Origin: Candidatus Binatia bacterium
GTDB lineage: Bacteria; Desulfobacterota; Binatia; UBA12015
Direction: 5' to 3'
DNA length: 64,000 bases
Assembly (NCBI GenBank): GCA_965658895.1
Contig: CBFHUR010000006.1
Location: 50,131-114,130 of the forward strand
In this document: positions 1,140-49,554 of the stretch, piece after piece
How positions within the stretch are numbered: position 1 is the first letter of the stretch
How the letters are laid out: each line of letters opens with the position of its first letter
Notes under the pieces: model-generated
The model's input: only the letters and a program-made list of their open reading frames with translations
What the model was told of the DNA's origin: nothing
Databases searched by the model: none
Position numbers and translations under genes: made by a program

Positions 1140-1142
1140 CAG

Positions 1143-8321: not shown

Positions 8322-8340
8322 TGTCGTCGGTAGCGCCATG

Positions 8341-10291: not shown

Positions 10292-13162
<2,871 letters not shown>

Positions 13163-13174
13163 ACGCGGGCGAGT

Positions 13175-14569: not shown

Positions 14570-14581
14570 GTCGATCTCCTG

Positions 14582-25800: not shown

Positions 25801-27069
25801 ATGGACGCCTTGTTCGATTTTCGGCAGGCCGGTTGCCGGGTGCGGCGCTTGCCACGGAGGCCTCTGTTCCGTACCCAACGATCGGTGAAGTGGTGTTCGG
25901 CACTTTCGACCGATGACGATATCGTGAGCGCGACGCGTTCGGTCGTCGATACGGTCCACGCGGGGATGGGGCCTCAGGAGCCAAATCTGGTGCTTTTGTT
26001 CGTTTCGGATGGCCACGCCGAGCACTACGGGGAGGTCGCTGCTCTGGTGGGCGGGGAATTCCCGGCGGCGCTGATCATCGGCTGCACTGCGCGCGGCGTG
26101 ATTGGCGGAGGTCTCGAGATCGAGTCCTCGGGGGCCTTGCCGGGAGTAACCTTGAACCCCTTTCATCTCGATGCTGAGGAATTGCCCGAGGCGGAACGGG
26201 CGTCGGCATTCTGGTCGCAGCGTTTTGGCGGGCTGGTGGGCGAGGATCCATGTTTCCTCGTGTTGGCGGATCCGTTCTCGATGGACGTGGAATCGATGGT
26301 GCGTGGCCTCGAAGCCGCCTTTCCCGGTGCGCCCGCGATCGGAGGTCTGGCAAGCGGGGGCGGGGCTCCTGGTGAGAATGCCTTGTATATTGGCAGCGAT
26401 GTGCACCGCAGTGGTGCTGTAGGCATCGCGCTCTCGGGCAATATCCTGCTCGAGACCGTCGTTGCGCAAGGATGCCGCCCGGTTGGTCTCCCGATGTTCG
26501 TGACGCGCGCGCGAGAAAATATTCTGTTCGAGCTTGATGGAAGGCCCGCGCTGCAGGTCGCCAATGAAGTCATCGAGAGCCTTTGCGAGAGTGATCAGAT
26601 GGCCGCGCATCAGGCGCTCCTGCTGGGTTTGGGTATGGGGGACGGTCAAGGGCCGTTCGGTCAGGGGGATTTCCTCATGCGGAACCTCGTTGGCAAGGAC
26701 GAGCCGTCGGGGTCCCTTCTGGTCGGAGCGATGCTCGATGAAAAGCAGGTCGTGCAATTCCAGCTTCGAGATGCGACCGCGGCGCGCGAGGAGCTTCAGG
26801 CTTCGCTGTCGCAGGTCGGCGGCGGTTTTGCGGGCGCAGTCCTTCTGTCTTGCCTCGGCCGCGGTGAGGGTCTCTACGGCTGCGCAAACCATGATTCGGA
26901 TCAGGTGCGCGCTCGCTGCGGAGAGATCCCGGTGGCGGGTTTCTTTGCGGAAGGGGAGGTCGGTCCGGTGGGTGGAGAAACCTTCGTCCACGGCTACACG
27001 AGTGTGATCGGATTGTTTCGGAGCCGAGACTCCGAAACGGCCTCAGTTGAGGTAACCGAGGGCTCTTAG
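25801..27069 (+). CDS. FIST (N+C) domain sensory protein
   Basis: 'SALSTDDDIVSATRSVVDTV...NLVLLFVSDGH' matches the FIST-N start and 'AGFFAEGEVGP' matches FIST-C. The start may be GTG at 25885. Confidence 0.65.
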   Translation: MDALFDFRQAGCRVRRLPRRPLFRTQRSVKWCSALSTDDDIVSATRSVVDTVHAGMGPQEPNLVLLFVSDGHAEHYGEVAALVGGEFPAALIIGCTARGVIGGGLEIESSGALPGVTLNPFHLDAEELPEAERASAFWSQRFGGLVGEDPCFLVLADPFSMDVESMVRGLEAAFPGAPAIGGLASGGGAPGENALYIGSDVHRSGAVGIALSGNILLETVVAQGCRPVGLPMFVTRARENILFELDGRPALQVANEVIESLCESDQMAAHQALLLGLGMGDGQGPFGQGDFLMRNLVGKDEPSGSLLVGAMLDEKQVVQFQLRDATAAREELQASLSQVGGGFAGAVLLSCLGRGEGLYGCANHDSDQVRARCGEIPVAGFFAEGEVGPVGGETFVHGYTSVIGLFRSRDSETASVEVTEGS

Positions 27070-29100
27070 GGACTCCTCCATCCGTTGCGGGATGGCTTGA
27101 TCGTCCATCGAGTTGCCACGGTCCTTGCCGGTGAGGTCTTCTCGAATCTTGGCGCTTTCCCTCCGGTGGGCCTCGATGATTGCCTGGCGGTCGGGTGGCA
27201 GCGTGGGCTGCTTGATCGTGTGCCATTCGAACGGGTCGGTCTCGAGCGGGTAGTTGCGGGTCTCCTCGTCGGAGTAGATCGATTTCCAGCTCTGGTTCCG
27301 CGCGCCAAGAGCTCCTTTTTGATGCCACGAGAAATAGATCTCACGGTTGGGTGCGATCGCCGTGCCGAACATCGCGTCGCGGAGGCTCCGGCCCTGGCCT
27401 TGCGGGAGTCCGGGAAGTTGCAGAAGCTCCAGCAAGGTTGGAGCAACGTCGGTCAAGCTGGCACTGCCGGCAACCTCGACTCCCTCCGGAATGCCCGGCC
27501 CGCGCAGGATCAGCGGAATCCGGAGTTGTTCGTCGTGGAAGGCGAACCCGTGCCCGGGCAAGCTATGTTCGCCAAAGGATTCGCCGTGATCGGAGAGCAA
27601 GATGACCAATGTGTTCTTGCTGAGTCCCGTCTTGTCCAGTGTGTCGAGAATCTGCTCGACCAGAGAATCCGCCTCGCGGATCGTCCGATCATAGCGATCG
27701 ACATGCTTCTGTTGGGGGTCGGGGACGTAGGGGAGCGGACCGCCGTTTTTCCAGTGGTTGTCGTTGCGGAACATTGCATCGAACTCGGGGCTGGAATCAT
27801 AGGGGTCATGGGTTTGGTAGGTATGAAGAAACAAAAAGAATTGCTGATCGACGTTTTTTTTCAGGTACTCTTCCGCCCGGGCGAAACTCACGGGTCCCAG
27901 CTTTTCGCTGACGACGGATTGCTCGGTAAACGCGTCAAAGCCGCGCCAGAAACCGAAGAGACCCGAGACCAGCGCATTTTCGGTGATGGCATCGGTTTGA
28001 TAGCCGGCGGCCTGGAGGCTCTCGGCCAGCGTGGTTACCGGGGAACCGGGTCGCAGGCGTCCGCGGACTGGCTGGGCATCGGGGTAGAGTCCGGTGAAGA
28101 GCGAGAGGTGGGAGACGTCAGTTTGCGGGAAGGTGCTGAAGACGTCGAGGAACGTTGTGCCCTCATCCATCAGGCGGTCATCAATCGCCGGTGTGGTCTG
28201 GCGTGGGTAGCCGTACCCCGACATATGATCGGCGCGCAAGGTGTCAAGGCAGATCAGCAGTACGTTGGGTTGCCGCACCTGCTGGAGCGAGCGGGTCCTG
28301 ACTTCGGGCCATGCCCAAAGACCGCGCGTTGAGGGCTGGCCGTCCGGATCGGTGACGCGCAGAGAAAGCTCGCATTGCTCGCCGCCTTGCGGGACGGCGA
28401 CCCGAGCGGATCGCCAGCCGGTGCCTGGCTCGGTATCGACGCGTCCCTCACCGAGAAGTGCGGTGCCTGGCCGTCCATCGCAGGCGAGATCGGCCTGGTA
28501 GCGCAGGGGCGGATCGGGCACGGCCCCCGCCGTGGGCGTAGAGCCAAAGTGGAATTGCAGTTCGGATTGCGCGGGGATCGCAAATCCATAGCTCCGGAGT
28601 TCGCTGGGGGCCGGTGTGGTCAGGAAGAGGCGCGCATTCATGAGCCCTTCCGCGCCGCGACCGCGTTCGTCTCGGATGATCACTCGGTAGCCATCCTGGT
28701 CTGGCTCGATACTCCAACCCTTTTCGATACGACGCCAGAAAACTTTATCCTGCAGCCCCTTGGCGATGTTATTGTCGCTGCTGGCCAGACCGGCAGCGAA
28801 GGTCTGGATGCTGAGATTGGCGCGCCGGATGTCGTCGGGTGCGATCTGGATGGAAAATTGCGCGACGCCGTCCTCGAGGGGGATGCCGATCTGTTCGGTA
28901 TGGAGTTCTTCGCCGACCAGGCCGAGCACCGGGCGGGCGGTGGCTCCGATGATGGATCGGGCAATTGGTTGGTCCGGGTCCATCCCGAACTGTTCGGGTC
29001 CGAGTCGCTGTTCGACTTGCCACCCCGGCGGGGGCTGGCTGCAACTGGCGATCAGAGACGCCAGCGTCAGGAGTCCAATGGTGCGAATCACGGTGGCCAT
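27043..29100 (-). CDS. sulfatase-superfamily (alkaline-phosphatase-like) lipoprotein, Thr-type; N-terminal ~300-aa domain of unknown function
   Basis: The lipobox 'LASLIASC' follows the Met at 29100 (CAT 29098-29100). Sulfatase-family motifs 'LLICLDTLRADHMSGYG' and 'LLSDHGESFGEH' are present. Thr, not Cys/Ser-x-P-x-R, sits at the formylglycine position ('TDVSHLSLFTG'). The protein ends in 'LRALGYLN'. Confidence 0.75.
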   Translation of the reverse strand: MATVIRTIGLLTLASLIASCSQPPPGWQVEQRLGPEQFGMDPDQPIARSIIGATARPVLGLVGEELHTEQIGIPLEDGVAQFSIQIAPDDIRRANLSIQTFAAGLASSDNNIAKGLQDKVFWRRIEKGWSIEPDQDGYRVIIRDERGRGAEGLMNARLFLTTPAPSELRSYGFAIPAQSELQFHFGSTPTAGAVPDPPLRYQADLACDGRPGTALLGEGRVDTEPGTGWRSARVAVPQGGEQCELSLRVTDPDGQPSTRGLWAWPEVRTRSLQQVRQPNVLLICLDTLRADHMSGYGYPRQTTPAIDDRLMDEGTTFLDVFSTFPQTDVSHLSLFTGLYPDAQPVRGRLRPGSPVTTLAESLQAAGYQTDAITENALVSGLFGFWRGFDAFTEQSVVSEKLGPVSFARAEEYLKKNVDQQFFLFLHTYQTHDPYDSSPEFDAMFRNDNHWKNGGPLPYVPDPQQKHVDRYDRTIREADSLVEQILDTLDKTGLSKNTLVILLSDHGESFGEHSLPGHGFAFHDEQLRIPLILRGPGIPEGVEVAGSASLTDVAPTLLELLQLPGLPQGQGRSLRDAMFGTAIAPNREIYFSWHQKGALGARNQSWKSIYSDEETRNYPLETDPFEWHTIKQPTLPPDRQAIIEAHRRESAKIREDLTGKDRGNSMDDQAIPQRMEESLRALGYLN

Positions 29101-33403: not shown

Positions 33404-34293
33404 CCTTCGGGCCCCTCCTGGGCCAGCATCCGGATCAGATACTGTCCGTAGGATGTTTTCGCGAGCGGCTGGGCCAATCGCTCCACATCGGAAGCCGAGA
33501 TATAGCCTCGCCGCCAGGCGATCTCTTCCAGACATGCGACTTTCAGGCCCTGACGTTCCTCAATTGCCTGAATGAAGTTTCCGGCCTGCAGCAGGGCTTC
33601 GTGGGTGCCGGTGTCGAGCCAGGCGAGCCCGCGACCCATTCGTTCGACTTGAAGGTCGCCGCTGGCAAGATAGGCGCGATTGACGTCGGTGATTTCAAGC
33701 TCGCCGCGAGGCGATGGGTTGAGTCCGCGAGCAATCTCGACGATGCGGTTATCATAGAAATAGAGCCCGGTGACGGCCCACGAGGAACGGGGCTCGAGGG
33801 GTTTTTCTTCCAGCCCGATCGCACTTCCCGATCCATCAAATTCCACCACGCCGTATCGCTCAGGGTCCGAGACCCAGTAGCCGAATACGGTGGCTCCTTT
33901 CTCGCGGCTTCCGGCGCGTTGCAGCATCTCGGTAAGGCCCTGGCCGTAGAAGATATTGTCCCCGAGAGCGAGAGCCGCACGACCGCCCTGGAGGAAATCC
34001 TCTGCAATCACAAATGCCTGGGCGATACCTTCCGGGCGCTCCTGGACCGCATATTGAAGGGAAATCCCGAGGTCGGAACCATCGCCGAGCAGGCGCTGGA
34101 ATGCGGGTTGCTCATGCGGTGTCGTGATGACCAGGATCTCGCGTATGGACGCCTGCATGAGCGTCGATAGCGGGTAGTAGACCATCGGTTTGTCGTAGAT
34201 CGGCAGGAGCTGCTTGCTGGTCGCCCGGGTTACCGGGTGCAGGCGCGTGCCGGCGCCGCCAGCGAGCAGGATTCCGCGAATGCTTGCACTCAT
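33400..34293 (-). CDS. rmlA: glucose-1-phosphate thymidylyltransferase
   Basis: '[40 protein letters not shown]' is the canonical RmlA N-terminus. Confidence 0.9.
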
Positions 34294-35375
34294 GATCGAC
34301 TCCCCAGGCCCAGACGGGCCCGCTCGGTTGGGTCCTCCTGAACTGTGTGACACCAATCCTGATGCGCGAGGTACCAGGCAACGGTCATGCGAAAGCCTTC
34401 GTCGACCCCGACCGAAGGTCGCCACCCAAGCTCTCGGACGGCCTTGCTTCCATCGATCGCGTAGCGCCGGTCATGTCCGGGTCGGTCGGTTACAAACCGA
34501 CGCAGCTCCGAGTAGCTTTTCAGTCCCCGGTCCCGGAGAGCTGCATTCTCGTGCGCGGGGCGTTGGTCTTCGAGAAGTTCGCAGATGGCGTCGACCACCT
34601 GTAAATTGGTGCGTTCGCCACCGCCCCCGAGGTTATATTTCTCGCCAGCGACACCCTTGCGGAGCACCGTGAGAATTCCATCGCAATGGTCTTCCACGTA
34701 GATCCAGTCCCGCACATTGCTGCCATCACCATAGATCGGGAGATCGGCAGCATCGACGGCGTTGAGGATCATCAAGGGGATGAGTTTCTCGGGAAATTGG
34801 TAAGGGCCGTAGTTGTTGGAGCAGTTCGTCAGGAGAGTGGGCACGCCGTAGGTGTGGAACCAGGCGCGCACCAGATGGTCGGCCGAGGCTTTGCTTGCCG
34901 CATAGGGCGAGTTTGGCGCATAGGGTGTGGTCTCGGAGAAGGCCCCTTGCGGCCCGAGACTCCCGTACACCTCGTCAGTCGAGACATGGAGGAAGCGGAA
35001 AGCATCGCGGTCTTCTCCTGTGAGCGATTCATGGAGTCGTCGTGCCGCTTCGAGCAACTGGAAGGTGCCGAGAATATTGGTGCGGAGAAACTCATCCGGA
35101 CTTTCGATCGAGCGATCCACATGGGATTCTGCTGCAAAGTTGACAATCCAGCGGGGCTTTTCCTCGAGGATCAACTGGTGGGTCCGGTCAGCGTCGGCAA
35201 TATCACCCTCGACAATTGTAAGACGTTGCTTGTCGAGACCTGCCAGCGAGTCTCGATGGCCTGCGTAGGTAAATTTGTCGAGGACTAGGATCCGGGCATC
35301 GGTCCGCTCGAGAGCCATGCGGACGAAGTTGACGCCGATAAATCCAGCCCCACCGGTGACGAGCATGGTTTCCAT
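34290..35375 (-). CDS. rmlB: dTDP-glucose 4,6-dehydratase
   Basis: '[15 protein letters not shown]' and '[15 protein letters not shown]' (YxxxK). It overlaps rmlA by 4 nt. Confidence 0.9.
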
Positions 35376-35441: not shown

Positions 35442-37013
35442 TCAGGATGAGGGGGCGTGGCCCGGGCCCAGCAGGTCGAGCAGGGATTTGACGGGTTGAA
35501 ATGTCTCGCGGGGGACCTCGACAAAGATCGTCGTCCATCCGGCCATCGAACCGTTCCACAGGCCTGGGTGCTCCAGCGCAAGAAGATCGCGGCCTTCGCT
35601 GGATTTTTTTGCGACGAAGACCGCCTCGGTGTCGACGAAATCACCGAGATCAAACGGCTGTCCCGCGGCATCGCGCAAGGCGCAGACCATATCGGTAGGA
35701 TTGAAATGGGTGGCCTCCTCCAAGTTGCGGGTTTGCTCGGGGTCGTCGGGGTCGATCTCGGCGGTCTCCACGATCTGCCGCGAGACGCTGCCATCATGGG
35801 CGCGCACCCAGAACGGACCGCCCCCGGGGTCGCCGGTGTTGCCAACGACGCCGCAGACGCGCATCGGCCGGCCGGCTACCTCCTCGAGGAGCGCTGGCAC
35901 GGGCTTGTCGAGCGCAAGGCCCAGTTCTTCGTTCAGGAAGTTCCCGGCAGCCTCCAGCACCGAGGGTTCGTTCGGGGACCTCTGGAGCTTCTCACGCCAT
36001 TGCAGAGTCTCGCGCTGCAGTTGGGCGAGCAGTCCGCCCAGAATTCGTCGCCAGTGAAGGATCGGCTCGCGTCGGTCGTCCGGCACGATATTGTCGATGT
36101 TCTTGATGAAGACGAAATCCCCGTCGAGTTGGTCGAGATTGTAGAGCAGCGAGCCGTGCCCTCCCGGGCGGAAGAGGATCTCTCCGTCTCCGGTTCGGAA
36201 AAGCTCTCCGTTCGCGTCCAGCGCAATCGTGTCCGTGGAGGGCGCCTGAGTAGAGAAGCTATGTCGGAATTCAATCGCCTGTGTTTTCTGGATTGCGGGC
36301 GCGACGCGGGAAAGGGTCTGCTCAAACTGGTCCTGGTGCTGGGGGGAGACGGTGAAATGCACTCGAGCGTGGCCATCGTGGTCCGCCAGTAGCGAGCCGG
36401 CTTCACGCAGGTGTTCCTCGAAGGCCGTACGAGCGGCGTTCGGGTAGCGGTGAAATGGAAGTAAGCCCTTGGGCTGGGCTGGCAAATTCAGGGCCTGGGC
36501 GTCGAGCAACGCGTCAACCAGCGGTGCATAGTTCCCTGACCGGATCGTGGTCTCCAGTCCTGTCTCGGTTTCGTCGAGATAGCGCGCGAGGTCATCCTCG
36601 ATTGCGAGGCGGTCTATCGAGGAAAACGTCGTCAGGACATCGAGGTCCTCGGGGGCGTCGGAGGACTCCAGGCTCTGCCGATCGAGCGCTCGCCCACTCG
36701 ATTTGGCCTCCAGCAGGGTCTTGAACATTCGCGAAGCGGCACCGGAGGCGGGGACAAAGGAGAGATAGCGTCCCGCGAGAGCTGCTTGCGAAAACTCGCT
36801 GAGGCAGGCTTCGATCTCCTTGGGGGACAGCTTTCGAACCCCGTCCCCGACGGTCGCGGGCCGATCGAGTACCCGGTAGGTCGCGCTGCCTGCGAGGAGG
36901 TCGCGCTGCCGGGCGACCTCCTCGAGGGTCAGGCCGCGGGCTTCAATTGCGGCCTGGTCGGCCTGATCGAGATGGAGATCGTTTGGTTCACGCATCACGG
37001 GGCGAGATAGCAT
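35442..37013 (-). CDS. DUF4301 family protein (putative UGPase/UAP-like sugar-1-phosphate nucleotidyltransferase fold)
   Basis: 523 aa. Motifs 'FVPASGAASRMF', 'FIKNIDNIV' and 'RPGGHGSLLYNL' resemble the nucleotide-binding, NxDN and PGHGD motifs of eukaryotic-type UDP-sugar pyrophosphorylases; this is inference. It is directly upstream of rmlBACD on the same strand. Confidence 0.55.
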   Translation of the reverse strand: MLSRPVMREPNDLHLDQADQAAIEARGLTLEEVARQRDLLAGSATYRVLDRPATVGDGVRKLSPKEIEACLSEFSQAALAGRYLSFVPASGAASRMFKTLLEAKSSGRALDRQSLESSDAPEDLDVLTTFSSIDRLAIEDDLARYLDETETGLETTIRSGNYAPLVDALLDAQALNLPAQPKGLLPFHRYPNAARTAFEEHLREAGSLLADHDGHARVHFTVSPQHQDQFEQTLSRVAPAIQKTQAIEFRHSFSTQAPSTDTIALDANGELFRTGDGEILFRPGGHGSLLYNLDQLDGDFVFIKNIDNIVPDDRREPILHWRRILGGLLAQLQRETLQWREKLQRSPNEPSVLEAAGNFLNEELGLALDKPVPALLEEVAGRPMRVCGVVGNTGDPGGGPFWVRAHDGSVSRQIVETAEIDPDDPEQTRNLEEATHFNPTDMVCALRDAAGQPFDLGDFVDTEAVFVAKKSSEGRDLLALEHPGLWNGSMAGWTTIFVEVPRETFQPVKSLLDLLGPGHAPSS

Positions 37014-39064: not shown

Positions 39065-39631
39065 TTACTCCATGCCGAGCTTGGTGCGGCCTTCGGGCGA
39101 AATCATGTTCGGGTTCCATACGGGCGCCCAGACGATTTCGACTTCGGCTTCTTCCACACCGGGAATTGTGAGAATTTTGTAGCGAGCATCCGCCGCGATG
39201 GTGTCTCCCATCCCGCAGCCAGGCGCCGTCAGGGTCATCTTGACGTCAACCTTGTGGCGGCCCGCATCGATGGGCTGCGCACTCAGGTCATAAACAAGGC
39301 CCAGATCAACGATGTTCACGGGGATCTCGGGGTCGTAGCAGGTGCGCAGCTCCGTCCAGATCCGTTGCTCGAGTTCTTCGCCTTCGAGCGGGTCTTCACT
39401 CGAGGCAGGTGCCTCGGTGGTCTCGGCTCGCTTCTGGCCGACAGCGTCGGCATCCCGCTCGGAGATTCGGACGAGTCCCCCGTAGTCGGGGACGCTGAGC
39501 GTGTAGGAGCTGCCGAGCGCCTGGGTGATCACCGCCCGGGTCCCTTTCGGGATCAGTACGGTATGTCCGGCCGGTACCAGCACCGCCTCGCAGTCCCGCG
39601 ACAATTCAATCCAATCGGTCGATTCATTCAT
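39065..39631 (-). CDS. DUF59 (MIP18/SufT-like) Fe-S assembly-related protein with N-terminal extension
   Basis: The C-terminal 'CYDPEIPVNIVDLGLVY...TLTAPGCGMG' is the DUF59 signature. The start is uncertain (track ORF to 39751). Its stop abuts the gltA start. Confidence 0.55.
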   Translation of the reverse strand: MNESTDWIELSRDCEAVLVPAGHTVLIPKGTRAVITQALGSSYTLSVPDYGGLVRISERDADAVGQKRAETTEAPASSEDPLEGEELEQRIWTELRTCYDPEIPVNIVDLGLVYDLSAQPIDAGRHKVDVKMTLTAPGCGMGDTIAADARYKILTIPGVEEAEVEIVWAPVWNPNMISPEGRTKLGME

Positions 39632-39987
39632 TTGGTCTAATTCCCGAGGTTTGGCGGAGAAGAGTCCGAGTTTACAAAGGATTTTTGCGAAGCCGAGCTC
39701 TGAAAGAGCATCCGGAGCGCCGCGGACCGTCCGCAGAAGAAGTCTACCCAATCGGCGGCCCTGTTGCCACTTTCGTCCTCTGGCGGGGCCAAATTATAGA
39801 CTCCTCCATAGCGATTGCGTGTGACAGGCAGCCGCTCGCGTCGAAGGTGTATTGCTCGCGGCCGTGTCGGCCGATAGTCTCTCGAAGTTCCGTTGTTTTC
39901 GTTCACTTTTCCATGGCTTCGAAATTCCAAATAACACCTGCCTCGGCTTTGGACTCGACGCGCCTCGAGCGCTGAGGGAATCCGTTC

Positions 39988-42900
39988 ATGATCATGCTGC
40001 TCCAGTTTCTGGCCATCGTTGTGATGATGGTGCTCACCAGCCGCCTGGCGGTCGAACCTCTCAAGGGTCGCTTGATGAATATCTTCAAGCTCCTGCTGAC
40101 CGTGGGCATGGTCTACCATTTGTTGTTCTGGCCTGTCAGCGATGGGGCCGGTGGTACCGTGCCGGCATGGGATCTGATGTTGGAGCTGCTGCGCAACATC
40201 GACCCCGTCGTCTTCTGGACGTTTGCGGGGATCGGTGCCGGGGTTCGATTTCTGGGAGTTTTGGCCTCGATGTATCGCTGGCGATTGGTGCTGCGGGGCC
40301 AGAAGATCGAACTTCCCTTCTGGCATATCCTCGGAGCCTTCCTGATCGGTCGTGCGATCGGATTTTTCCTGCCCAGCACGGCAGGACTCGATGGATACAA
40401 ACTTTATGATGCGGCCCGATTCAGCGGCCGCACGGTTGAAGTCACGGCGGGCACGGTGCTCGAAAAGGTTCTGGGTATCACCGGGATTTTCCTCACCTAT
40501 CTGGTGGCTCTTCCCTTCGGGATGTCGATTTTTGGTGAGAATGCGGTCACGGTCGCGCTGATCACAGTGCCTTTGGCGATTGCGATCATCGGTGGTCTGC
40601 TGACTCTGCTCTGGTTCCCCGGCGTGATCCAGTGGGTCATCGAGACGGTGCCTATTCCGGCAAAAGCTCAGATTGAAGGCCTGGTCCTGCGCACTTCGGC
40701 GGCCGCGGCTGCTTATCGCGACCAGAAAATGCTCGTTCTGGGGATGCTGGTGATGAGCTTTCTCTCGCATTTCTTCACCGCGGCCATGTACTTTTTCATG
40801 GCGATTGCCGTTGGTGCCGGGGCAGATGCCGTATTTTGGCCCGTCGTCTTCGGCTCCTCGATCCAGATCTTCGCGACCGTTCTTGGCCCGACCATTGGTG
40901 GCATCGGCGTGCGCGAGGCCGCCCAGGTTCTTACCCTGGGCGCTCTGCTCGGGCCGATCGTGGCGGCGGTTTCGGCGACGCTCGGATTCTGGGTGGGCGA
41001 AGTACCGACCCTCTTCGGATTCCTCTTCTGGATGGTTCGGGGTCCTGATTACCGGCCGAGTTATTGCCGTGTAGACGGCAAGCAAGTTGACTACGAAGAA
41101 ACGGCCAAGATGGCCATGGAGCTCGAGACCGAAGAGGAACGCCAGGCACGCGAGGACCGCCAGGCGGCAGGCGATGTGGTTTCCGCCGCCGTTCTGGAGC
41201 AACCGACCCGACTGTTTGTGTCCAGCGGGCTTGGATTGGGTGCCGGGGTACTCTCGGGAATCTTGATCGGCACGATCGAGGCTATGGTGATTGGTGCTGG
41301 AGGCTTCGGACCGGAATCACAGGTCTTGTGGTACGGCCCGCTGCTTTACGCGGCTTTGCTCGGTGGCCTGGGGCTGCTGGGCGGCGCGGTCCTCAGCATC
41401 CTGCCGATGCAGGAGTCCGAGGTCCGTGGTTGGGTGCCGACTCTCGGCTTTGCCGCAACGCTGGTGCCGCTCGGGCTGGCGATCGTTGTCTTTCGGTTGA
41501 AGCGAGACGTCTATCTCGAGCAAATGCCTCCCCTTCCCGTGCTGCTCGGTGTGGTGGCTGGCGCGGGCGTGTTGGCGCTTGTGATTTTGATGTTCGGGCG
41601 ACGGTTTTTCCAATCCGGCGCCGGACGCATCGCGCGTCCGCTGCCGGCTTTGTCGCTCTTGCTGGTCGTGATGGCGGCCGGGGCGCTGTTGGGTCCGCGG
41701 GAACCGGCGGTTGTGGTGGAAGCCCGCACCGAGGTGCCGGCGCATCTGAGGGACCGCCCGAACGTGGTCCTGGTCATCGCCGATACGCTGCGGGCGGACC
41801 ATCTGGGCTCCTATGGGGATCCTCGTGGCCTGACGCCGAACCTGGATGCCATGGCGGATGAGGGCACTGTCTGGGAAGCCTTCGGGCAATCGTCGTGGAC
41901 CAAGCCGTCGGTAGCGACCATCCTGACCTCGCTCTACGCATCGACGCATGGTGCGATGAGCAAACCTTCGATCTTGCCGGAAGTCACAACCGTGGCGGAC
42001 GCCTTGCAGGCGGAGGGCTACGCGACGTCGGGTTTTGTTTCGAATGTCAATCTGGCGCCTTCGTTCAATTTCCAGCAGGGATTTGATGAATACACCTACT
42101 ATGCGCCCGACTATTTATTTGAGGCCGAGGAGTCTTCGTCGAAGCTGATTCTCTACCAGATCCTGCGGCCGCTCTATTTCAAGGTCATGGGCTCGCAATG
42201 GGTGGAGTTGTTCTACCAGGACTCGCGCACGGTGAATGCCGATGCTCTTCCCTGGCTCGAACGGCATAAGGACGATCGGTTCTTTGCCTTGCTGCATTAT
42301 ATGGACCCGCATGACCCTTATTTTGCCCACCCCTACGACGGACGCGGAATCGCAAGGGTCGAGAACCAGAACCCCGACCCGGAACAAGCCGCCGAGATGC
42401 TCGAGCTCTATGCGGGTGAGATTCAGTACATGGACGAGAGTTTCGGAGATTTGATTGCCACGCTCAAGGAGCATGACATCTACGATGATACGCTGATCGT
42501 CTTTACGGCCGACCATGGCGAAGAGTTTCAGGAGCACGGTGGCTGGTGGCATGGGACGACTCTTTACGAGGAGCAGGTTGCGGTTCCGTTGATCGCCAAG
42601 TTCCCGGCGGGGTCGCTGGTGCCTGCGCGGCCTCAGGGAGTTGGTCGTTTGCTGGATATCGCCCCGACGATTCTGGCCGCTTCCGGAACCGCGATTCCGC
42701 GCGAGTGGCAGGGTGCTGATCTGGCGTTGCCGATCCCCTCTCATCGCGTGGCGTTTGCCGAGGAGGACCATGAGGGCAATATCATTACGGCCGCCCGCAA
42801 TGCGCGCCTCAAGCTGATTCGAGCCAATGCAGGAAATCCCCGGGGGCTTCCGGAGCTGGAACTATTTGATCTGCAACGGGACCCCGGTGAACAGGAAAAT

Positions 42901-43056
42901 GTGGCCCCCGATCGCCCTGTGGAGGTCGAGGATCTGGATCGCGAGGTCGTCTCGATCACGACGGGTGCTGCTCAGGAAGCAGTGGCAAACGACGGCGAGG
43001 TCGAGATGGATGATGCCACCCGGGACCGACTGCGCGCGCTCGGCTATATCGAATAG
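39988..43056 (+). CDS. fusion protein: MprF-type flippase-like (lysylphosphatidylglycerol-synthase TM region/UPF0104) domain + multi-TM linker + Thr-type sulfatase-superfamily (LtaS/EptA/OpgB-like) domain
   Basis: Residues ~1-330 carry 'YRWRLVL', 'GLDGYKLY' and 'GGIGVREAA', characteristic of the LPG_synthase_TM/flippase-like family. Residues ~390-580 form a second TM block. The C-terminal ~440 aa carry 'VVLVIADTLRADHLGSYG', 'SSWTKPSVATILTSLYAS' (Thr at the nucleophile position) and 'VFTADHGEEFQEHG', and end in 'LRALGYIE'. Confidence 0.7.
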   Translation: MIMLLQFLAIVVMMVLTSRLAVEPLKGRLMNIFKLLLTVGMVYHLLFWPVSDGAGGTVPAWDLMLELLRNIDPVVFWTFAGIGAGVRFLGVLASMYRWRLVLRGQKIELPFWHILGAFLIGRAIGFFLPSTAGLDGYKLYDAARFSGRTVEVTAGTVLEKVLGITGIFLTYLVALPFGMSIFGENAVTVALITVPLAIAIIGGLLTLLWFPGVIQWVIETVPIPAKAQIEGLVLRTSAAAAAYRDQKMLVLGMLVMSFLSHFFTAAMYFFMAIAVGAGADAVFWPVVFGSSIQIFATVLGPTIGGIGVREAAQVLTLGALLGPIVAAVSATLGFWVGEVPTLFGFLFWMVRGPDYRPSYCRVDGKQVDYEETAKMAMELETEEERQAREDRQAAGDVVSAAVLEQPTRLFVSSGLGLGAGVLSGILIGTIEAMVIGAGGFGPESQVLWYGPLLYAALLGGLGLLGGAVLSILPMQESEVRGWVPTLGFAATLVPLGLAIVVFRLKRDVYLEQMPPLPVLLGVVAGAGVLALVILMFGRRFFQSGAGRIARPLPALSLLLVVMAAGALLGPREPAVVVEARTEVPAHLRDRPNVVLVIADTLRADHLGSYGDPRGLTPNLDAMADEGTVWEAFGQSSWTKPSVATILTSLYASTHGAMSKPSILPEVTTVADALQAEGYATSGFVSNVNLAPSFNFQQGFDEYTYYAPDYLFEAEESSSKLILYQILRPLYFKVMGSQWVELFYQDSRTVNADALPWLERHKDDRFFALLHYMDPHDPYFAHPYDGRGIARVENQNPDPEQAAEMLELYAGEIQYMDESFGDLIATLKEHDIYDDTLIVFTADHGEEFQEHGGWWHGTTLYEEQVAVPLIAKFPAGSLVPARPQGVGRLLDIAPTILAASGTAIPREWQGADLALPIPSHRVAFAEEDHEGNIITAARNARLKLIRANAGNPRGLPELELFDLQRDPGEQENVAPDRPVEVEDLDREVVSITTGAAQEAVANDGEVEMDDATRDRLRALGYIE

Positions 43057-43117
43057 ACAGCGCCGGGCTGGTCGGCCTCAGCCTTGGTTTCCGGGCCTCT
43101 GGCTTTTGCGCTAGGGT

Positions 43118-45319
43118 GTGGCGGTGCGTTCGTCCACTGTCCTAGCCGTTCTGCTCTTTGCGGCGTCGGCGACCTTCATGCTTCGCGAAGTGCTGCCGGC
43201 CCCGGCCTCGCTTCTGCAGACGTCCGTGCAGACGCACGATTCCGAGGGGGGTGGGGCCGAGTGGGAACTTCTCGGGCAGTTCGACCAGCAGATGGTCGTT
43301 GCCCTCGTCGCGCGCAATGCGGATCTTCTTCTCTCGGATCCCGCCGGATTGTTCGGCGTGGGCCAGTGTTTTCCCTTTCCCGCATCTTTTACGCTGGGTG
43401 AACATGCTTTCGTTGAGGGGGCGATGGCGGCGCTTCCGCTGGCACTGACCGGGGAGCCCATCCTGGCCTACAACTTCATGCTTTGGGTTGGCTATGTCCT
43501 CGCCGGCTTCAGCATGTTTCTGCTGGTTCGTCACTTCACGGGCAGCGTCGCCGCGGGCATCCTCGCCGGCTTTCTTCTGCAATGGTTCCCCAGTCGTATC
43601 ATCGATGGCGGCCACCCGTTCCTGCACACGGAATTCTGGCTGGTCTTCGCCCTGCTGTTTCTCCACCGCCTTTTTGTTTTGGGACAAATCCGATCGATGT
43701 TCGGCGTGGCTTTCTTTCTGGGGATGCAGGCCCTCGGCAGCTTCTATCTGATTCTCGCAGTGATTCCGGTGGTGCTGATCTACGTGGTTTTTCTGGTCTG
43801 GACCCATCCCCGCTACCGCCTCCGGGCTCTGGCTCTCACGATGGTCGCCGGCCTGTGGGTGGCGGCGGTCGGTTTGATGGTTCTGATGCCGTATCTCCAG
43901 ACCCGGCAAGAGTGGTCGCTTCTGGGCGGACGCGAGGGGATTCTCTTGCCCTTCAGTGTCTTTTTGCCGGGCTCGAGCTCGTTTCCCGGGTGGGTGTATG
44001 CCTTGCTTTTCCTGATCGGCGCGGGCGACCGGCTTCGGGGGCGTCGTGGTTCCAGGGGGGAAGATCCGCGCGCGCCGTTTCTGGTGGCGACTTTGCTGGT
44101 CCTGGTCTGCGCGACTTCCGGAATCGAGGTGCCGGGAACCTCGATTCACCTCGACTCTCCCTGGAGCTATCTGACGGGCATTGTCCCCGGTCTCGATGCG
44201 GTCCGGGCGCCGGGGATCATGGCCAATATCATGTGGGTTCCGGCCACGGTCGTGGCCGGGTACGGGGCGCTGGTCGTCTTTGAGGTTCTCGGTCGTCGGG
44301 CCGAGCATTGGGCCTTGGCGGGCCTGGTGCTCGCCGTCGCATTGATCCGATTTGTGCCGGTCCTCTCGGAGTTCACCTATGGGGGCAGCCTGGGTGTGGA
44401 GGCGCGTGACGCGCGCCCCGGGCAAGCCGATGTTGCGTTGATCCGGGCAGCTTCTCCAGGTGCTGTCATCCACGTGCCGATGGCCAAGGAGGGCCCGGCA
44501 TCCACGGGCGGGAATGCGAGCTTGCAACTCCTGCTCGGCAGCTTCTCGCCCAGTCCCTCGACCAGTTGCTACAACTCGTTTTTGTCACCCTATGCATCTC
44601 AGCTTGGTCAATTGGGGAGTCGCCTTCCGACCATGGAATCGCTGGAGGCGTTGGGCGCGATCGGGATCGACACGATCGTTGTCCACAAACTTGGGTCGGG
44701 TGGGGCGCCCCTCATGGGTAATTTTCTCGATTGGTTTCGCGCACAGATCGAGGAGTCCGCCGAGTTGCAGTCCCGGCTGAAGCTGGTGGGTGAGACAGAT
44801 CGTTTGCTGGTCTATTCGTTGACGCCGCGGGGGCTGGCAAGCTCTCGTGAGTCCGCCCTCCACCGTGGCGTAGCGTGGGGAGAGCCCTGGCGGGAAGGCG
44901 AGTCGACCACGGTGCGTTTCTGGACGCGTAATCGGTCAAGTATGGTCTTTCGGGATGCCGAACCCCGAGGGTATCGCGAGGGTGCTGTCCTCTGGGTGAA
45001 TGAGGACGGTGACGCCATCTCGCGGTCGCCGGTTCGCTTTCTGATGCCGCTGGCGCTGGCTCCGGGCGGCAGGATTGGTCTCGATATCGAGGTCGAGCCG
45101 CCTCCGAGTGACGGAACCCTCCTGGGATATCTGAGCCCCGCCGGGAAGCGCTGGAATGGGATGGCACTCGCTCGGGTTTGGCGAGAGCAGCCCTCGGCGT
45201 CTGCGGCGGGCTCCACGTCCGAGGGAACGGTCGGGCTCGAGGAGAGCTCCGAGGCCGTGGAAGTCTCCGAGCCCGAGGAAAGCTCCGGCGCCGATGCCGA
45301 GCGCGGCGCCGGGAGTTGA
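43118..45319 (+). CDS. large polytopic membrane protein with C-terminal soluble domain (GT-C-like / YfhO-like glycosyltransferase candidate)
   Basis: 733 aa from a GTG start. About 11 predicted TM helices span residues ~1-400, followed by a ~300-aa non-membrane domain and a Ser/Glu-rich acidic tail. The GT-C assignment is topology-based inference only. Confidence 0.45.
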   Translation: MAVRSSTVLAVLLFAASATFMLREVLPAPASLLQTSVQTHDSEGGGAEWELLGQFDQQMVVALVARNADLLLSDPAGLFGVGQCFPFPASFTLGEHAFVEGAMAALPLALTGEPILAYNFMLWVGYVLAGFSMFLLVRHFTGSVAAGILAGFLLQWFPSRIIDGGHPFLHTEFWLVFALLFLHRLFVLGQIRSMFGVAFFLGMQALGSFYLILAVIPVVLIYVVFLVWTHPRYRLRALALTMVAGLWVAAVGLMVLMPYLQTRQEWSLLGGREGILLPFSVFLPGSSSFPGWVYALLFLIGAGDRLRGRRGSRGEDPRAPFLVATLLVLVCATSGIEVPGTSIHLDSPWSYLTGIVPGLDAVRAPGIMANIMWVPATVVAGYGALVVFEVLGRRAEHWALAGLVLAVALIRFVPVLSEFTYGGSLGVEARDARPGQADVALIRAASPGAVIHVPMAKEGPASTGGNASLQLLLGSFSPSPSTSCYNSFLSPYASQLGQLGSRLPTMESLEALGAIGIDTIVVHKLGSGGAPLMGNFLDWFRAQIEESAELQSRLKLVGETDRLLVYSLTPRGLASSRESALHRGVAWGEPWREGESTTVRFWTRNRSSMVFRDAEPRGYREGAVLWVNEDGDAISRSPVRFLMPLALAPGGRIGLDIEVEPPPSDGTLLGYLSPAGKRWNGMALARVWREQPSASAAGSTSEGTVGLEESSEAVEVSEPEESSGADAERGAGS

Positions 45320-45350
45320 GGCAACAGGCGATAGAAGCGAGGATGGTGAT

Positions 45351-47159
45351 ATGCGCTACCAGCCAATCGAGAACTACGGGATTATCGGCAATTTGGAGAC
45401 CATTGCTCTGGTGGGGCTGAATGCTTCCATCGACTTTTTCTGTTTCCCGAATTTTGATTCACCTTCCGTCTTTGGGGGGCTTCTGGACGCGGCGTCCGGG
45501 GGATGCTTCTCGGTGGAAGCCGAGCTGCCGGAGGCTCGGCATACGCAGCTCTATCTTCCCGAGACCAATGTGCTCCTGACCCGAATGCTGGCGGCTGACG
45601 GCGTGGCCGAGATCAGCGATTTCATGCCCATCGGGGAGGAGTCGGGGCGGTGCGCCCTGGTGCGTCGAATTCGCACCGTTCGAGGACGGGTTCGATTCCG
45701 GATCCGTTGCGCGCCCCGGTTCGACTACGGGCGAGCTTCCCACGATACCGACCGGACAAGCGATGGCGTGGTCTTCTCGTCGCGTGGTCCGGATGGAACA
45801 GCGCTGCGATTGCGCAGCGGCCATGCCCTGCGTGTCGAGGACGGGGCTGCGCTGCTGGAGGTCGAGCTTGCTGCGGGTGAATCCGTGCATCTGGTGCTCG
45901 ATGACGCCCATGCCCCAGCGCATGGCGAGGATCTCGGGAATTGGTGTGACGCCGCCTTTGACGAAACCGTTCGGTATTGGCGGGGCTGGTCGGATCGATC
46001 GAACTATGATGGGCGCTGGCGCGAGATGGTCCAACGCTCGGCCTTGACGTTGAAGCTGCTTACCTCACGACGATACGGATCTCTGGTGGCAGCCCCCACG
46101 ATGGGTTTGCCCGAAGAAGTCGGTGGCGAGCGGAATTGGGATTATCGCTATACCTGGATCCGCGATTCGGCTTTTACGGTCTATGCACTTCTTCGGCTGG
46201 GCTACACCGAGGAGGCGGGCAATTTCATGCATTGGGTCGAAGCCCGTTGTGAGGAGTTGCAGCCCGACGGTGCCCTGCAGATCATGTACGGCATTGATGG
46301 TCGGCACCGACTCGAGGAATCCGAACTCGCGCATTGGGAAGGGTACCGGGGCTCGTCGCCGGTCCGGCTGGGCAATGGCGCCTATGATCAGCTGCAGCTG
46401 GATATTTATGGCGAGCTGATCGACTCGATTTACCTCTACGACAAATACGGTACTCCGGTCTCGTTCGATTTTTGGGAGAATATCGTGCGCCTGGTGGAGT
46501 GGGTGTGCACGAACTGGCAGCGTCCGGACGAAGGCATCTGGGAGGTGCGCGGCGGTCAGCAGGAGTTTTTGTATTCTCGCCTGATGTGTTGGGTCGCAAT
46601 CGATCGGGCCCTGCGGCTGGCGGAGAAGCGCTCGTTGCCGGCGCCAGTGGTGCGTTGGCGTGGCGTGCGCGACGCGATCCACCACGAGATTGTGAACCAA
46701 TTCTGGTCCGAGAAGCGCTCCGCCTTCGTGCAATACAAGGGCTCGGAGACGATCGATGCGTCGTGCCTGCTGATGCCGCTGGTGCGTTTTATCAGCCCCA
46801 GGGACCCGCGCTGGCTCTCTACCCTCGATGCGGTGACAAATGATCTGGTCGATGATTCTCTGGTCTATCGGTATCGCAATGAACAGGCGGCCTCCGACGG
46901 GCTCTCCGGTTCCGAGGGGACCTTCAATATTTGCTCCTTCTGGTATGTCGAATGCCTCTGTCGAGCCGGGCAAGTGGAAAAGGCACAGCTGCTCTTCGAG
47001 AAGATGCTCGGTTACGCCAATCATCTCGGTTTGTATTCCGAAGAGTTGGGTCCCGCCGGCGAACATCTGGGGAACTTCCCGCAGGCTTTCACTCATCTGG
47101 GGTTGATCAGCGCGGCGTTCAGCTTGAATCGGAATCTTGAGGGAGGCTGGCGGCCCTGA
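45351..47159 (+). CDS. glycoside hydrolase family 15 (glucoamylase/trehalase-like)
   Basis: The N-terminal '[36 protein letters not shown]' is the GH15 N-domain signature, with an (alpha/alpha)6 region '[14 protein letters not shown]'. ATG at 45351. Confidence 0.8.
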
Positions 47160-47229
47160 GACGGCGGACTGCGCCGAATGTTGCAGATCCACTGTTGCGC
47201 CGGGAAGCGGTCTGGGCAAAACTCCGGGC

Positions 47230-47694
47230 ATGTCGGATCGACCATTCAGGATTTTAGGGGTGCAGCAGATTGCTGTGGGGAGCGAGAGCAAGGACCGCCT
47301 TCGCAAGTTGTGGGTGGAGCTGTTGGGCCTGGAGGTGCAGGGCACCTTCCGTAGCGAGAAGGAAAATGTCGACGAAGACATCGCGGTGGCGGGCAAACCC
47401 CCGTTTGCGGTTGAAGTCGACCTGATGGAGCCGATTGACCCGAACTCGCGCCCCAAGGTGCATGTGCCCCCCCTGAACCATGTTGGTCTCTGGGTGGATA
47501 ATCTTCTGCTGGCAGTCGAGTGGCTCGAAGGACAGGGAATGCGGTTTGCTCCGGGCGGCATCCGCAAGGGCGCCGCCGGCTTTGATGTCTGCTTTGTGCA
47601 TCCGGTCGGCAATGAGTCCTCGCCCATCGGCGGCGAAGGCGTTCTGATCGAGTTGGTTCAGGCACCGCAAGAGATTATCGACTCGCTTGGCTAG
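47230..47694 (+). CDS. VOC family protein (glyoxalase / methylmalonyl-CoA epimerase-like)
   Basis: About 155 aa with 'HVGLWVDNL...[23 protein letters not shown]' paired beta-alpha-beta-beta-beta modules. ATG at 47230. Confidence 0.6.
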
Positions 47695-47769
47695 GGGATC
47701 CGGGCCTACGGATTCGTTGCCTGGGTGGGTCTCGGAGGTGTTTCTTCCGGAGGCTCGGGAAGCTAGGGT

Positions 47770-49554
47770 TTGCGGGGCATGAGACGCCTCTGGCAAACTG
47801 TACTGCAATACCGGGCGCGGTGGATTGCTGGCTGCGCGATGCTGGTGGTGACGGCGTCGTTGGCGATGGTGATCCCGCTGCTGTTGCGGGCGGCTGTCGA
47901 CCGGATTGCGGGGGACGAGACGGCCTCGGCGCTTCCGGAAGTCTCGTATTACGTGGGCTGGATTCTGGCCATTGCCGTGGTGCAGGGCTTCACGAGGACG
48001 ATTTCGCGGTTTCTGATTTTCAATACCGGGCGCGATGTCGAATACGACCTGCGCAACGACTTATTTGAACATCTGGAGTCGCTGCCGCCGGAATTCTACA
48101 AGAAGCATCCTACCGGCGATCTGATGTCGCGGCTGGTCAACGATATCTCGGCTGTGCGTCTGATGCTGGGGCCGGGGATCCTGAATCTGATCAATACCCC
48201 GATCTATTACATCTACGGCCTGACGATCATGCTCTCGATTGATCCCGCCCTTACTTTGGCGGCGCTCGCGCCTTACCCACTGGCACTGCTTTTTATCAAG
48301 GCGACCACCGGGCGCATGATGGAGCGCCAGCTTCGGGTGCAGGAGGGGATTGCCTCGATGACCAATGCGATCCAGGAGCACGTCAGTGGCATTCACGTTG
48401 TGAAGGCCTATACGATGGAGGACCGCGAGCAGGAACGCTTTCAGGAAGAAAACGAATCCTTTCGGACCGCCAGTATCGACCTGGCCAGACTGCGCGGGAT
48501 GATTGCCCCCGTCACGCGTCTGGTCAGCGCGTTCGGGATTCTGATCGTACTTTGGTTTGGTGGGGCAAAGGTGGCACGAGGTGCACTGCAGTTGGGCGAC
48601 CTGGTTGCCTTCATGGGCTACTTGCACCTGCTGGCATGGCCCACGATGGCTTTGGGATGGATGATCTCGATCGTGCAGCGAGGCCGGGTTGCCATGGATC
48701 GTCTCGAGGAGATTTTCTCGGTGCAGTCCACCTTGCAAGTGGAGCAACCGGTCGCCGCACGCGCGCCGGCGACGGTGCGGGCCGGTGCCATCGATTTTCG
48801 TAACGTGAGTTTTGCCTACCCCGACGATCCGGAGAATCTGGTTCTGCATGATATCTCGCTTCAGGTACCCGCGGGATCGACTCTGGCGGTTGTGGGGCGG
48901 GCGGGTTCGGGCAAGAGCAGCCTGATCCAATTGATCCCGCGCCTTTTTGATACCACCGAGGGCGTGGTTCGCGTGGACGGCCGTGACCTGAGGGAATTTG
49001 ATTTGGAGGCGTTGCGGGAATCGATCGCCTTCGTCCCTCAGGATCCGTTTTTGTTCTCCACCTCGATTGCCGAGAATATCGGCTTCTCTTCGCCCGAGAG
49101 CAGCGAGGGAGAAGCGGGCGAGATCCCCGAGCGCATTCGGGAAGCGGCGTCATGGGCCGCGGTGGACGGGGATGTGGGCGCCTTCCCGCATGGATATCGC
49201 ACGATGGTCGGAGAGCGCGGGATTACGCTTTCCGGGGGGCAGAAGCAGCGAGTTACCCTCGCGCGGGCCTTGCTTCATGACGCCCCCATTCTGATTCTGG
49301 ACGATTCGCTCTCGAGCGTGGATACGCAGACGGAAGAGGAGATCCTGAGATCATTGGGTTCCCGGCGCAAGGGTCGTACCTGCTTGATCGTGGCCCATCG
49401 CCTTTCGACCGTTCAGGATGCAGACTCGATTGTGGTTCTCGATGGGGGCCGGGTGGTCGCGCAGGGCAGGCATGAGGAGCTTTTGCGGGACTCGGTTCTC
49501 TATAGCGATCTGTTCCGCCGCCAGATTCTCGCGGAAGAATTGGAGGCGCTATGA
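47770..49554 (+). CDS. ABC transporter permease/ATP-binding protein (type I exporter half-transporter)
   Basis: TMD followed by an NBD with Walker A 'GRAGSGKSS', signature 'LSGGQKQR' and Walker B 'ILILDDSLS'. Confidence 0.9.
   Translation: MRGMRRLWQTVLQYRARWIAGCAMLVVTASLAMVIPLLLRAAVDRIAGDETASALPEVSYYVGWILAIAVVQGFTRTISRFLIFNTGRDVEYDLRNDLFEHLESLPPEFYKKHPTGDLMSRLVNDISAVRLMLGPGILNLINTPIYYIYGLTIMLSIDPALTLAALAPYPLALLFIKATTGRMMERQLRVQEGIASMTNAIQEHVSGIHVVKAYTMEDREQERFQEENESFRTASIDLARLRGMIAPVTRLVSAFGILIVLWFGGAKVARGALQLGDLVAFMGYLHLLAWPTMALGWMISIVQRGRVAMDRLEEIFSVQSTLQVEQPVAARAPATVRAGAIDFRNVSFAYPDDPENLVLHDISLQVPAGSTLAVVGRAGSGKSSLIQLIPRLFDTTEGVVRVDGRDLREFDLEALRESIAFVPQDPFLFSTSIAENIGFSSPESSEGEAGEIPERIREAASWAAVDGDVGAFPHGYRTMVGERGITLSGGQKQRVTLARALLHDAPILILDDSLSSVDTQTEEEILRSLGSRRKGRTCLIVAHRLSTVQDADSIVVLDGGRVVAQGRHEELLRDSVLYSDLFRRQILAEELEAL

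Follow-up and report, generated by a model that had tools for sequence, protein, structure and literature searches.

Organisation of the locus

The stretch of DNA analysed here, referred to as the window, comprises 64,000 nucleotides of contig CBFHUR010000006.1 from a Candidatus Binatia bacterium (assembly GCA_965658895.1). On its forward strand, the window encodes a protein of 1022 amino acids that joins an MprF-type lipid flippase/scramblase domain, known as PplT or LPG_synthase_TM, to a sulfatase-fold domain of the alkaline-phosphatase (AP) superfamily. A linker and a module of five transmembrane (TM) helices lie between the two, and Thr occupies the formylglycine position of the sulfatase-fold domain. 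Both halves are of known kinds. What is new is their combination, a topology that is inverted relative to MprF, and the origin from the sulfatase lineage of a Thr enzyme with the architecture of the head-group transferases. The features of the locus are as follows.

39988..43056, + strand: fusion gene, 1022 amino acids, an uninterrupted open reading frame (ORF) of PplT domain, linker, five-TM module and Thr-type sulfatase-fold domain
40060..41037, + strand: PplT / LPG_synthase_TM domain (MprF-type flippase/scramblase), residues ~25-350, with one extra N-terminal helix (residues 2-20) before it
40270-40305, + strand: motif MYRWRLVLRGQK, present and conserved
40378-40410, + strand: motif TAGLDGYKLYD, present and conserved
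40888-40926, + strand: motif PTIGGIGVREAAQ, present and conserved
41038..41199, + strand: charged linker, residues 351-404, predicted cytoplasmic
41200..41691, + strand: five-TM module, residues 405-568
41749..42942, + strand: sulfatase-fold (AP superfamily) domain, residues 588-985, predicted periplasmic, PF00884
41893..41907, + strand: SWTKP motif; Thr638, encoded at 41899-41901, is at the formylglycine (Cys/Ser) position and is the predicted nucleophile
42511..42555, + strand: DHGEEFQEHGGWWHG, with metal ligands D842/H843 and invariant H850 and H855; G856 is at the sulfatase catalytic Lys position
43118..45319, + strand: ORF2, GT-C-fold membrane protein, 733 amino acids, probable start at 43124
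45351..47159, + strand: GH15 glycoside hydrolase, trehalase-like, without a signal peptide
27043..29100, - strand: paralogous Thr-type sulfatase-fold lipoprotein (PF00884, 186.4 bits), whose N-terminus MATVIRTIGLLTLASLIASC is a lipoprotein signal peptide

The layout of the fusion was read from an AlphaFold2 (AF2) model, with a mean predicted local distance difference test (pLDDT) of 82.2 and a predicted template-modelling (pTM) score of 0.62, together with hydropathy. Pfam matches both halves. PF03706 (LPG_synthase_TM) covers residues 61-332 and profile positions 21-289 of 302, at 51.8 bits against a family cut-off of 33.4 (E 1.1e-13), and PF00884 (Sulfatase) covers residues 591-900 at 163.6 bits (E 9e-48), followed by a SGSH_C match on residues 850-976. 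An initial annotation of this DNA had described one ORF of 1022 amino acids carrying these two domain classes, with an N-terminal domain of the LPG_synthase_TM family. That description holds, and the motifs quoted in its support are all at the expected positions. No Pfam family matched the linker and five-TM region (residues 350-591). The GC content is level across the region of the three ORFs.

Authenticity and distribution of the fusion

When 5.8 billion proteins were searched, more than 120 clusters matched the fusion at 53-99% identity, and 120 of these were listed. The listed homologues have the same Pfam architecture, nearly all with 98-100% query coverage, and a length of 1000-1070 amino acids was found in 118 of the 120. 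They stem from independent JGI, ENA, NCBI and Logan assemblies. In the alignment of 68 sequences from which conservation in the fusion was read, the junction residues R351, Y355, P357, G364 and D368 are invariant. The initial annotation had allowed for a chimera of two genes or a frameshift; both are ruled out by the lengths, coverage and independent assemblies of the homologues and by the invariant junction, and the fusion is genuine.

With residues 1-410 as the query, phmmer was run exhaustively on 1.84 billion cluster representatives and found 1535 matches at E <= 1e-3, including 80 at E <= 1e-30. Among the best 149 matches, at least 36 representatives (of clusters at 50% identity) also carry the C-terminal domain, and nearly all of these full fusions contain SWT[KR]P. 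On contigs from one genome per species, the full fusion was found in the clade of the window, in relatives named Candidatus Binatia, 'Proteobacteria TMED72' and Myxococcota, and also in Polyangiales, Hydrogenedentota and one metagenome-assembled genome (MAG) of Fermentibacteria. The fusion is old and conserved across several phyla. All members of the family come from uncultured MAGs and carry generic database names, 'sulfatase-like hydrolase/transferase' at NCBI and 'arylsulfatase A-like enzyme/uncharacterized membrane protein YbhN (UPF0104 family)' at JGI. A literature search found no paper treating a PplT/sulfatase-fold fusion. A rough neighbour-joining tree of the C-terminal domains, which is indicative only, distributes the fusions over at least four groups, with unfused forms interspersed among them, and this suggests that PplT has been gained or lost repeatedly.

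The N-terminal PplT domain and the linker

By fold comparison, the N-terminal domain has the fold of the lipid-translocating TM domain of MprF, which was found as a relative by this route only. Searches of Pfam and NCBIfam found no aminoacyl-phosphatidylglycerol synthase domain (DUF2156 / LPG_synthase_C) in the fusion, the C-terminal half being PF00884. The fusion is therefore not an MprF, and the lack of this domain sets it apart within the MprF and PplT/YbhN/GpgF family (PF03706, COG0392). A further difference is that its partner enzyme is predicted to be periplasmic, whereas that of MprF is cytoplasmic, and that a separate five-TM module joins the two halves.

PplT domains are nearly universal and occur in 148 architectures; a sulfatase partner is not named in the text of the survey that described them (Hauser et al., bioRxiv 10.1101/2022.03.11.483950). 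PaMprF is a promiscuous, energy-independent scramblase, and it has been proposed that the enzyme fused to it confers its specificity (PMC11980842). For the GlcN-PG operon, the predicted flippase is GpgF (PMC12713373).

The closest stand-alone PplT protein found, P0167, is 52% identical to the fused N-terminal domain. It was considered as one half of a split gene and rejected, as the downstream fragment has no match to the five-TM region. P0167 is located (L090, 1204-5769) near a GT4/TreT_GT1-type glycosyltransferase and a DUF5752 gene, an arrangement reminiscent of synthase-flippase pairs such as gpgS/gpgF.

The linker has a conserved start and contains a small structured element according to AF2 secondary structure. 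Its mean composition in the family is 6.5 K+R and 10.3 D+E.

The five-TM module and membrane topology

The helices of the module span residues 405-437, 446-469, 476-508, 516-542 and 551-568 in the AF2 model, with which hydropathy agrees. The module contains the motifs GxxE (E431) and FRxxRDxxxE (F502, R503, R506, D507 and E511); each of these named residues is invariant, as are Q445 and W448. Proteins without PplT that are 36-39% identical to fusion residues ~415-1022 carry the same module, including both motifs. The evolutionary unit is thus the five-TM module plus the Thr-type sulfatase-fold domain, onto which PplT was added. The presence of invariant motifs in the module itself, also in the PplT-less relatives, argues that it is more than an anchor.

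The five helices precede the sulfatase-fold domain, to which they are connected by a tether of 20 residues. The orientation of this domain is based mainly on its relatives. Stand-alone short members of the SWT.P family start with lipoprotein-type signal peptides (L057, L079, L081, L071, L062, L056 and L064), as does the paralogue on the reverse strand of the window. This paralogue aligns with the whole C-terminal domain of the fusion at 29% identity (E 2e-40), with its Thr on T638. The sulfatase-fold domain is thus almost certainly outside the cytoplasm. The same side is predicted from the helix count, since eight PplT helices (N-in and C-in, as described for MprF) and five more would bring the catalytic domain to the outside. 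The positive-inside rule favours cytoplasmic loops at residues 19-34, 95-112 and 541-551. The N-terminal ~270 residues of the window paralogue have no Pfam match, and this protein shows the pattern DHGESFGEH..GHG.

The Thr-type sulfatase-fold domain

Pairwise HMMER alignments to solved sulfatases (7oz8, 9ihk and 9s03) place T638 on the Cys/Ser and V642 on the Arg of the C/S-x-P-x-R motif, which reads T-K-P-S-V in the fusion. No alternative C/S-x-P-x-R signature aligned. The Thr at the formylglycine position noted in the initial annotation is therefore confirmed. Residues S636, W637, T638, K639 and P640 are invariant, position 642 varies between A, T, V and S, and 117 of the 120 listed homologues carry the SWTKP-type motif (SWT[KRT]P).

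Other positions of the sulfatase active site are also replaced. The GKWHLG of sulfatases aligns with SNVNL, so that invariant N686 and N688 stand in place of Lys/His, and in short-segment alignments G856 replaces the Lys of GWFDKR, the second catalytic Lys, adjacent to invariant H855. In sulfatases, the Lys/His pair and the second Lys bind sulfate. D599, T638, D842 and H843, which were assigned to the metal site by alignment to sulfatases, are invariant, and many further invariant His, Asp and Glu residues surround the nucleophile and the metal site. The fusion thus differs from the S1 sulfatases and phosphonate monoester hydrolases in having Thr for Cys/Ser, so that no formylglycine can form, in the replacement of the motif Arg and of the Lys/His and Lys positions to which sulfate binds in true sulfatases, and in being embedded in the membrane through five TM helices and the PplT domain. 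In view of the established chemistry of the AP superfamily, the loss of both formylglycine and the sulfate-binding residues, with a metal site that is kept and a Thr, makes phosphoryl transfer the most likely activity of the domain.

The initial annotation had grouped the domain with LtaS, EptA and OpgB, and this kinship was not borne out. In addition to the sulfatase profile, the domain has the sulfatase fold; among PDB sequences it matches true S1 sulfatases best, with E values down to 1.6e-25, and each of the 50 leading Foldseek matches is a sulfatase or a phosphonate monoester hydrolase. The comparison figures are 30-40.7 for S1 sulfatases, 32.7 for PbgA/YejM, 32.5 for LtaP, 29.8 for LtaS, 26.9 for EptC, 26.7 for EptA, 26.2 for MCR-1, 22.0 for BcsG and 19.6 for GacH. 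From these figures and its nearest relatives, the domain belongs to the sulfatase branch and not to the LtaS/EptA/OpgB branch, and the Thr that it shares with the latter is a convergent resemblance.

The resemblance extends to the architecture. EptA/MCR-1, EptB/C, CptA, OpgB, OpgE, BcsG, LtaS, GacH and PbgA/YejM all have four to five N-terminal TM helices followed by an extracytoplasmic AP-fold domain. The head-group transferases also share with the fusion a Thr nucleophile (Ser in BcsG) at a D/E-T-D-H metal site and a local similarity around DHGE...HG. EptA/MCR models and chains give weak local matches around the DHGEEFQEHGGWWHG stretch; the DHGE...HG pattern presumably resembles that of MCR-1, and is taken as a lead only.

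The extreme C-terminus of the fusion (43000-43056, residues 1005-1022) contains an L-R-x-L-G-Y-[ILV] motif, in which L1015, L1018, G1019 and Y1020 are invariant in the fusion family. An LRALGY form is common to the fusion and the window paralogue (27046-27070, - strand), in a region of low AF2 confidence.

Genes downstream of the fusion

ORF2 has a GT-C membrane fold, in agreement with its original description as a possibly GT-C-like polytopic membrane protein. An identical database protein is 731 amino acids long. Its sole Pfam match, PTPS_related, is below threshold (15.5 bits against a cut-off of 26.4), and D56 near the N-terminus is invariant. The ORF2 family is small, with 45 homologues found and no Pfam domain over the homologous region, and the gene comes and goes between closely related genomes. 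The third gene was correctly described as GH15 (PF00723, 253.3 bits; TREH_N, 71.1 bits), and the TreH1 model scores 391.6 bits against a cut-off of 820. The mechanical start of its ORF is at 45156. As its relatives are 602-603 amino acids long, the start is most likely at 45351, which removes any overlap with ORF2. After correction of the starts, the gaps are about 61-67 nt between the fusion and ORF2 and 31 nt between ORF2 and GH15.

The initial annotation regarded the three genes as an operon and as one head-group transfer-and-flip envelope module. They do share a strand with short gaps; a scan of 39600-47900 found no promoter-like site, and terminator-like sites did not exceed those of shuffled sequences. 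L007 retains all three genes (ORF2 84% identical), as do L008 and L009 (ORF2 56% identical), and ORF2, with its GT-C fold, would act on the periplasmic face. However, in L002 and L003 the fusion is 88% identical and GH15 follows it directly, with ORF2 absent. In a Binatia MAG whose fusion is 71% identical, neither gene follows the fusion, and an ORF2 homologue lies ~55 kb away. A tblastn survey of 89 loci detected ORF2 and GH15 only in L002-L004 and L007-L009, which had been retrieved through protein look-ups, and neither gene within 10 kb in any of 80 species-level loci. ORF2 also diverges much faster than its neighbours (56% against 86% identity for GH15 in L008), and GH15, without a signal peptide, resembles cytoplasmic trehalases. 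As a conserved module, the operon is largely refuted; the arrangement is a local gene order of close relatives only, and it is very unlikely that the three proteins form one envelope module.

In the Binatia MAG, the ORF2 homologue (L004, 8001-10085) precedes a deacetylase of Polysacc_deac_1+DUF3473 architecture, which is known from XrtA/PEP-CTERM loci, and an Acetyltransf_9 gene. In the Myxococcota-like clade, feoA-feoB and a conserved, unannotated ORF of ~290 amino acids always precede the fusion, and the downstream genes differ. This ORF (282-294 amino acids; L005, 7044-7928; L006, 6894-7742; also in L010-L013) has no confident Pfam domain, showing only weak SHOCT/GvpG-like matches at its C-terminus. 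Clustering of the neighbours revealed no gene common between clades beside the fusion.

Loci of the PplT-less relatives

The surroundings of the PplT-less relatives are informative. Of 39 loci with such a relative, 15 have NPP-type phosphodiesterase genes flanking it, and two such genes are directly upstream of the full fusion of Fermentibacteria. GT4 glycosyltransferases flank the relatives in 10 loci. In L033 (1-21677), L036, L039 and L088, the gene for the five-TM, SWTRP-type sulfatase-fold protein lies inside an XrtA/PEP-CTERM-like exopolysaccharide locus, which also holds a sigma-54 regulator, an export protein, a chain-length determinant, an O-antigen-ligase-like protein, a GT4 enzyme and a second membrane sulfatase-like paralogue. 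All scores in these loci are below equivalog cut-offs, as for the XrtA-associated-type ATPase with a SPOR domain (278.6 bits against 324.5). The occurrence of relatives in glycan biosynthesis loci is a likeness to bcsG.

In L038 (Myxococcota), a stand-alone PplT protein (348 amino acids; PF03706, 121.7 bits) is encoded 6 kb from a five-TM Thr-type enzyme. The same region (1025-16908) also contains two NPP genes, a GT2 gene, a membrane spermine-synthase-like methyltransferase, a sulfotransferase, a DUF3604 protein and another sulfatase, and is a candidate island for the modification of lipid or glycan head groups. Taken together, the neighbours of the relatives and the interleaved tree point to a role of the enzyme half in the decoration of a glycan or exopolymer, for which PplT may be helpful yet dispensable.

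Proposed mechanism and alternative explanations

BcsG, OpgB/OpgE, EptA and LtaS move a head group from a phospholipid to an acceptor by way of a phospho-enzyme. Membrane-anchored members of the AP superfamily with four to five N-terminal TM helices transfer phospholipid head groups to various acceptors (bioRxiv 10.64898/2026.09.23.753746). The architecture, nucleophile, metal site and context of the C-terminal two-thirds of the fusion match this class, from which we infer that this part works like the class without being a member of it. In this tentative reading, which is plausible and still short of probable, the fusion would be a periplasm-facing phospho-head-group transferase like BcsG, OpgB or EptA with a fused scramblase that exchanges lipid substrate and product between the leaflets.

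The protein would then be a self-contained inner-membrane enzyme with two cooperating halves. Residues 405-1022 would form a unit descended from S1 sulfatases and re-tooled for phosphoryl transfer, with the phospholipid held at the outer leaflet by the five-TM module. With its activation by the metal at D599/D842/H843, Thr638 would make a nucleophilic attack on the phosphodiester of the membrane phospholipid, so that a phospho-Thr intermediate forms and diacylglycerol leaves. An acceptor hydroxyl, most likely of a periplasmic or exported glycan, would then receive the phospho-head group. The PplT half (residues ~25-350) may serve as an energy-independent MprF-type scramblase, exchanging donor lipid and lipid product locally across the leaflets. 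This logic, 'flip, then use outside', would be the reverse of the 'modify inside, then flip' of MprF. The analysis establishes the domain identities and folds, the Thr, the retention of the metal ligands, the loss of residues specific to sulfatases, the export of the domain family and the conservation and recurrence of the fusion; the substrate, the acceptor, transfer in preference to hydrolysis and the functional coupling of the halves are inferred. Coupling is favoured by the spread of the fusion over several phyla and at least 36 clusters, by the interleaved tree and by the stand-alone PplT near a five-TM enzyme in L038. The initial annotation had suggested that a single chain decorates a lipid or glycan and translocates it. 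The domains for both activities are indeed in one chain, but the order was probably wrong: as the enzyme is on the outside, the scramblase would act before or alongside catalysis, and not after it. It is possible, although rather doubtful, that the fusion is jointly the first scramblase hard-wired to an extracytoplasmic enzyme and the first S1-lineage domain to become a phospholipid-dependent glycan-decorating transferase through a Cys-to-Thr change and loss of the sulfate site.

Several observations count against the transferase-scramblase scheme. The N-terminal domain fails the NCBIfam model TIGR00374 (21.4 against a cut-off of 43.2), and neither its single sequence nor a 44-sequence profile matched a solved MprF chain among PDB sequences. 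The positive-inside rule is ambiguous inside the five-TM module, where the invariant RLKRD would be outside. No known transferase is as near to the C-terminal domain as the hydrolytic sulfatases and phosphonate monoester hydrolases are, and the fusion belongs to none of the curated head-group transferase families, the NCBIfam models for EptA, LtaS, CptA and YejM scoring far below their cut-offs. The exopolysaccharide context is known only from PplT-less relatives at 36-39% identity, and the neighbourhood comparison found no acceptor-pathway gene conserved beside the fusion itself. Diacylglycerol also flips spontaneously, so that the need for a scramblase is not obvious.

Some of these points would fit a hydrolase, in which the Thr domain uses water as the acceptor and removes head groups or phosphate from lipids of the outer leaflet. 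It could act as a phospholipase-C/D-like enzyme, a lipid phosphatase or a polyprenyl-(pyro)phosphate phosphatase, with the scramblase feeding substrate or returning product, and help a marine bacterium to remodel lipids, scavenge phosphate or recycle carrier lipids. In both sequence and fold the domain is nearest to hydrolases, the genes most often found beside the relatives encode NPP-type phosphodiesterases, no acceptor pathway is linked to the fusion and the sources are mostly ocean MAGs. GT-C enzymes use polyprenyl-phosphate-linked donors, and one adjoins the fusion in this lineage. Against this, the exopolysaccharide context of the relatives favours decoration, a conserved five-TM module would be needless for a simple periplasmic hydrolase, and, apart from the lipid binder PbgA, every characterised enzyme with four to five TM helices and a periplasmic AP domain is a transferase (bioRxiv 10.64898/2026.09.23.753746). 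A hydrolase is on balance somewhat unlikely, although it is the strongest of the alternatives. The example of PbgA/YejM raises a different prospect, that the AP-fold domain and five-TM module mainly bind a lipid such as cardiolipin or lipopolysaccharide for sensing or trafficking, assisted by the scramblase and without catalysis. The nucleophile and all four metal-site residues are, however, invariant in ~120 homologues and in distant fusions, and the many additional invariant His, Asp and Glu residues around the site form a pattern typical of an active enzyme, which makes this improbable. An enzyme that is a true sulfatase or acts on sulfated lipids or glycans, with Thr or another residue standing in for formylglycine, would agree with the overall fold, with the best family matches and with the sulfotransferase in the locus of one relative (L038). 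It is nevertheless highly improbable: the domain lacks the C/S-x-P-x-R motif that formylglycine formation requires, V/A/T, N/N and G stand at the positions of the Arg, Lys/His and Lys, and the equivalog models for arylsulfatase, choline-sulfatase and PehA remain far below their cut-offs (119.4 against 481, 97.7 against 433 and 86.7 against 900).

Significance

PplT domains occur in nearly all prokaryotes, and their roles outside MprF are largely guesses. The fusion to a periplasmic enzyme is a natural experiment on the cargo and direction of PplT. EptA/MCR-1, OpgB and BcsG consume outer-leaflet phospholipid, and the replenishment of this pool is rarely addressed; a hard-wired scramblase suggests that lipid supply can be limiting. 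If the transferase-scramblase scheme is true, the supply of donor lipid to periplasmic head-group transferases can be protein-assisted, and PplT domains gain a physiological role that can be assayed directly. The Thr nucleophile would have been recruited independently within the sulfatase branch of the AP superfamily. This is relevant to studies of catalytic promiscuity and to annotation, where such proteins now go by the labels 'arylsulfatase A-like' or 'sulfatase-like hydrolase/transferase'. At present, the confinement of the family to uncultured MAGs limits the practical impact.

Other features of the window

Upstream of the fusion, a gene for a DUF4301 protein (35442-37013, - strand; 551.6 bits) adjoins rmlA/B/D-like dTDP-sugar genes (32004-35375, - strand). 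The Binatia-like clade (L001, L002 and L008) keeps this arrangement upstream of the fusion. Further downstream (54329-55606, + strand), prolipoprotein diacylglyceryl transferase (Lgt) is fused to an AhpC/TSA-redoxin/thioredoxin-like domain in a protein of 425 amino acids, and the close relative L002 has the same architecture at the same length.

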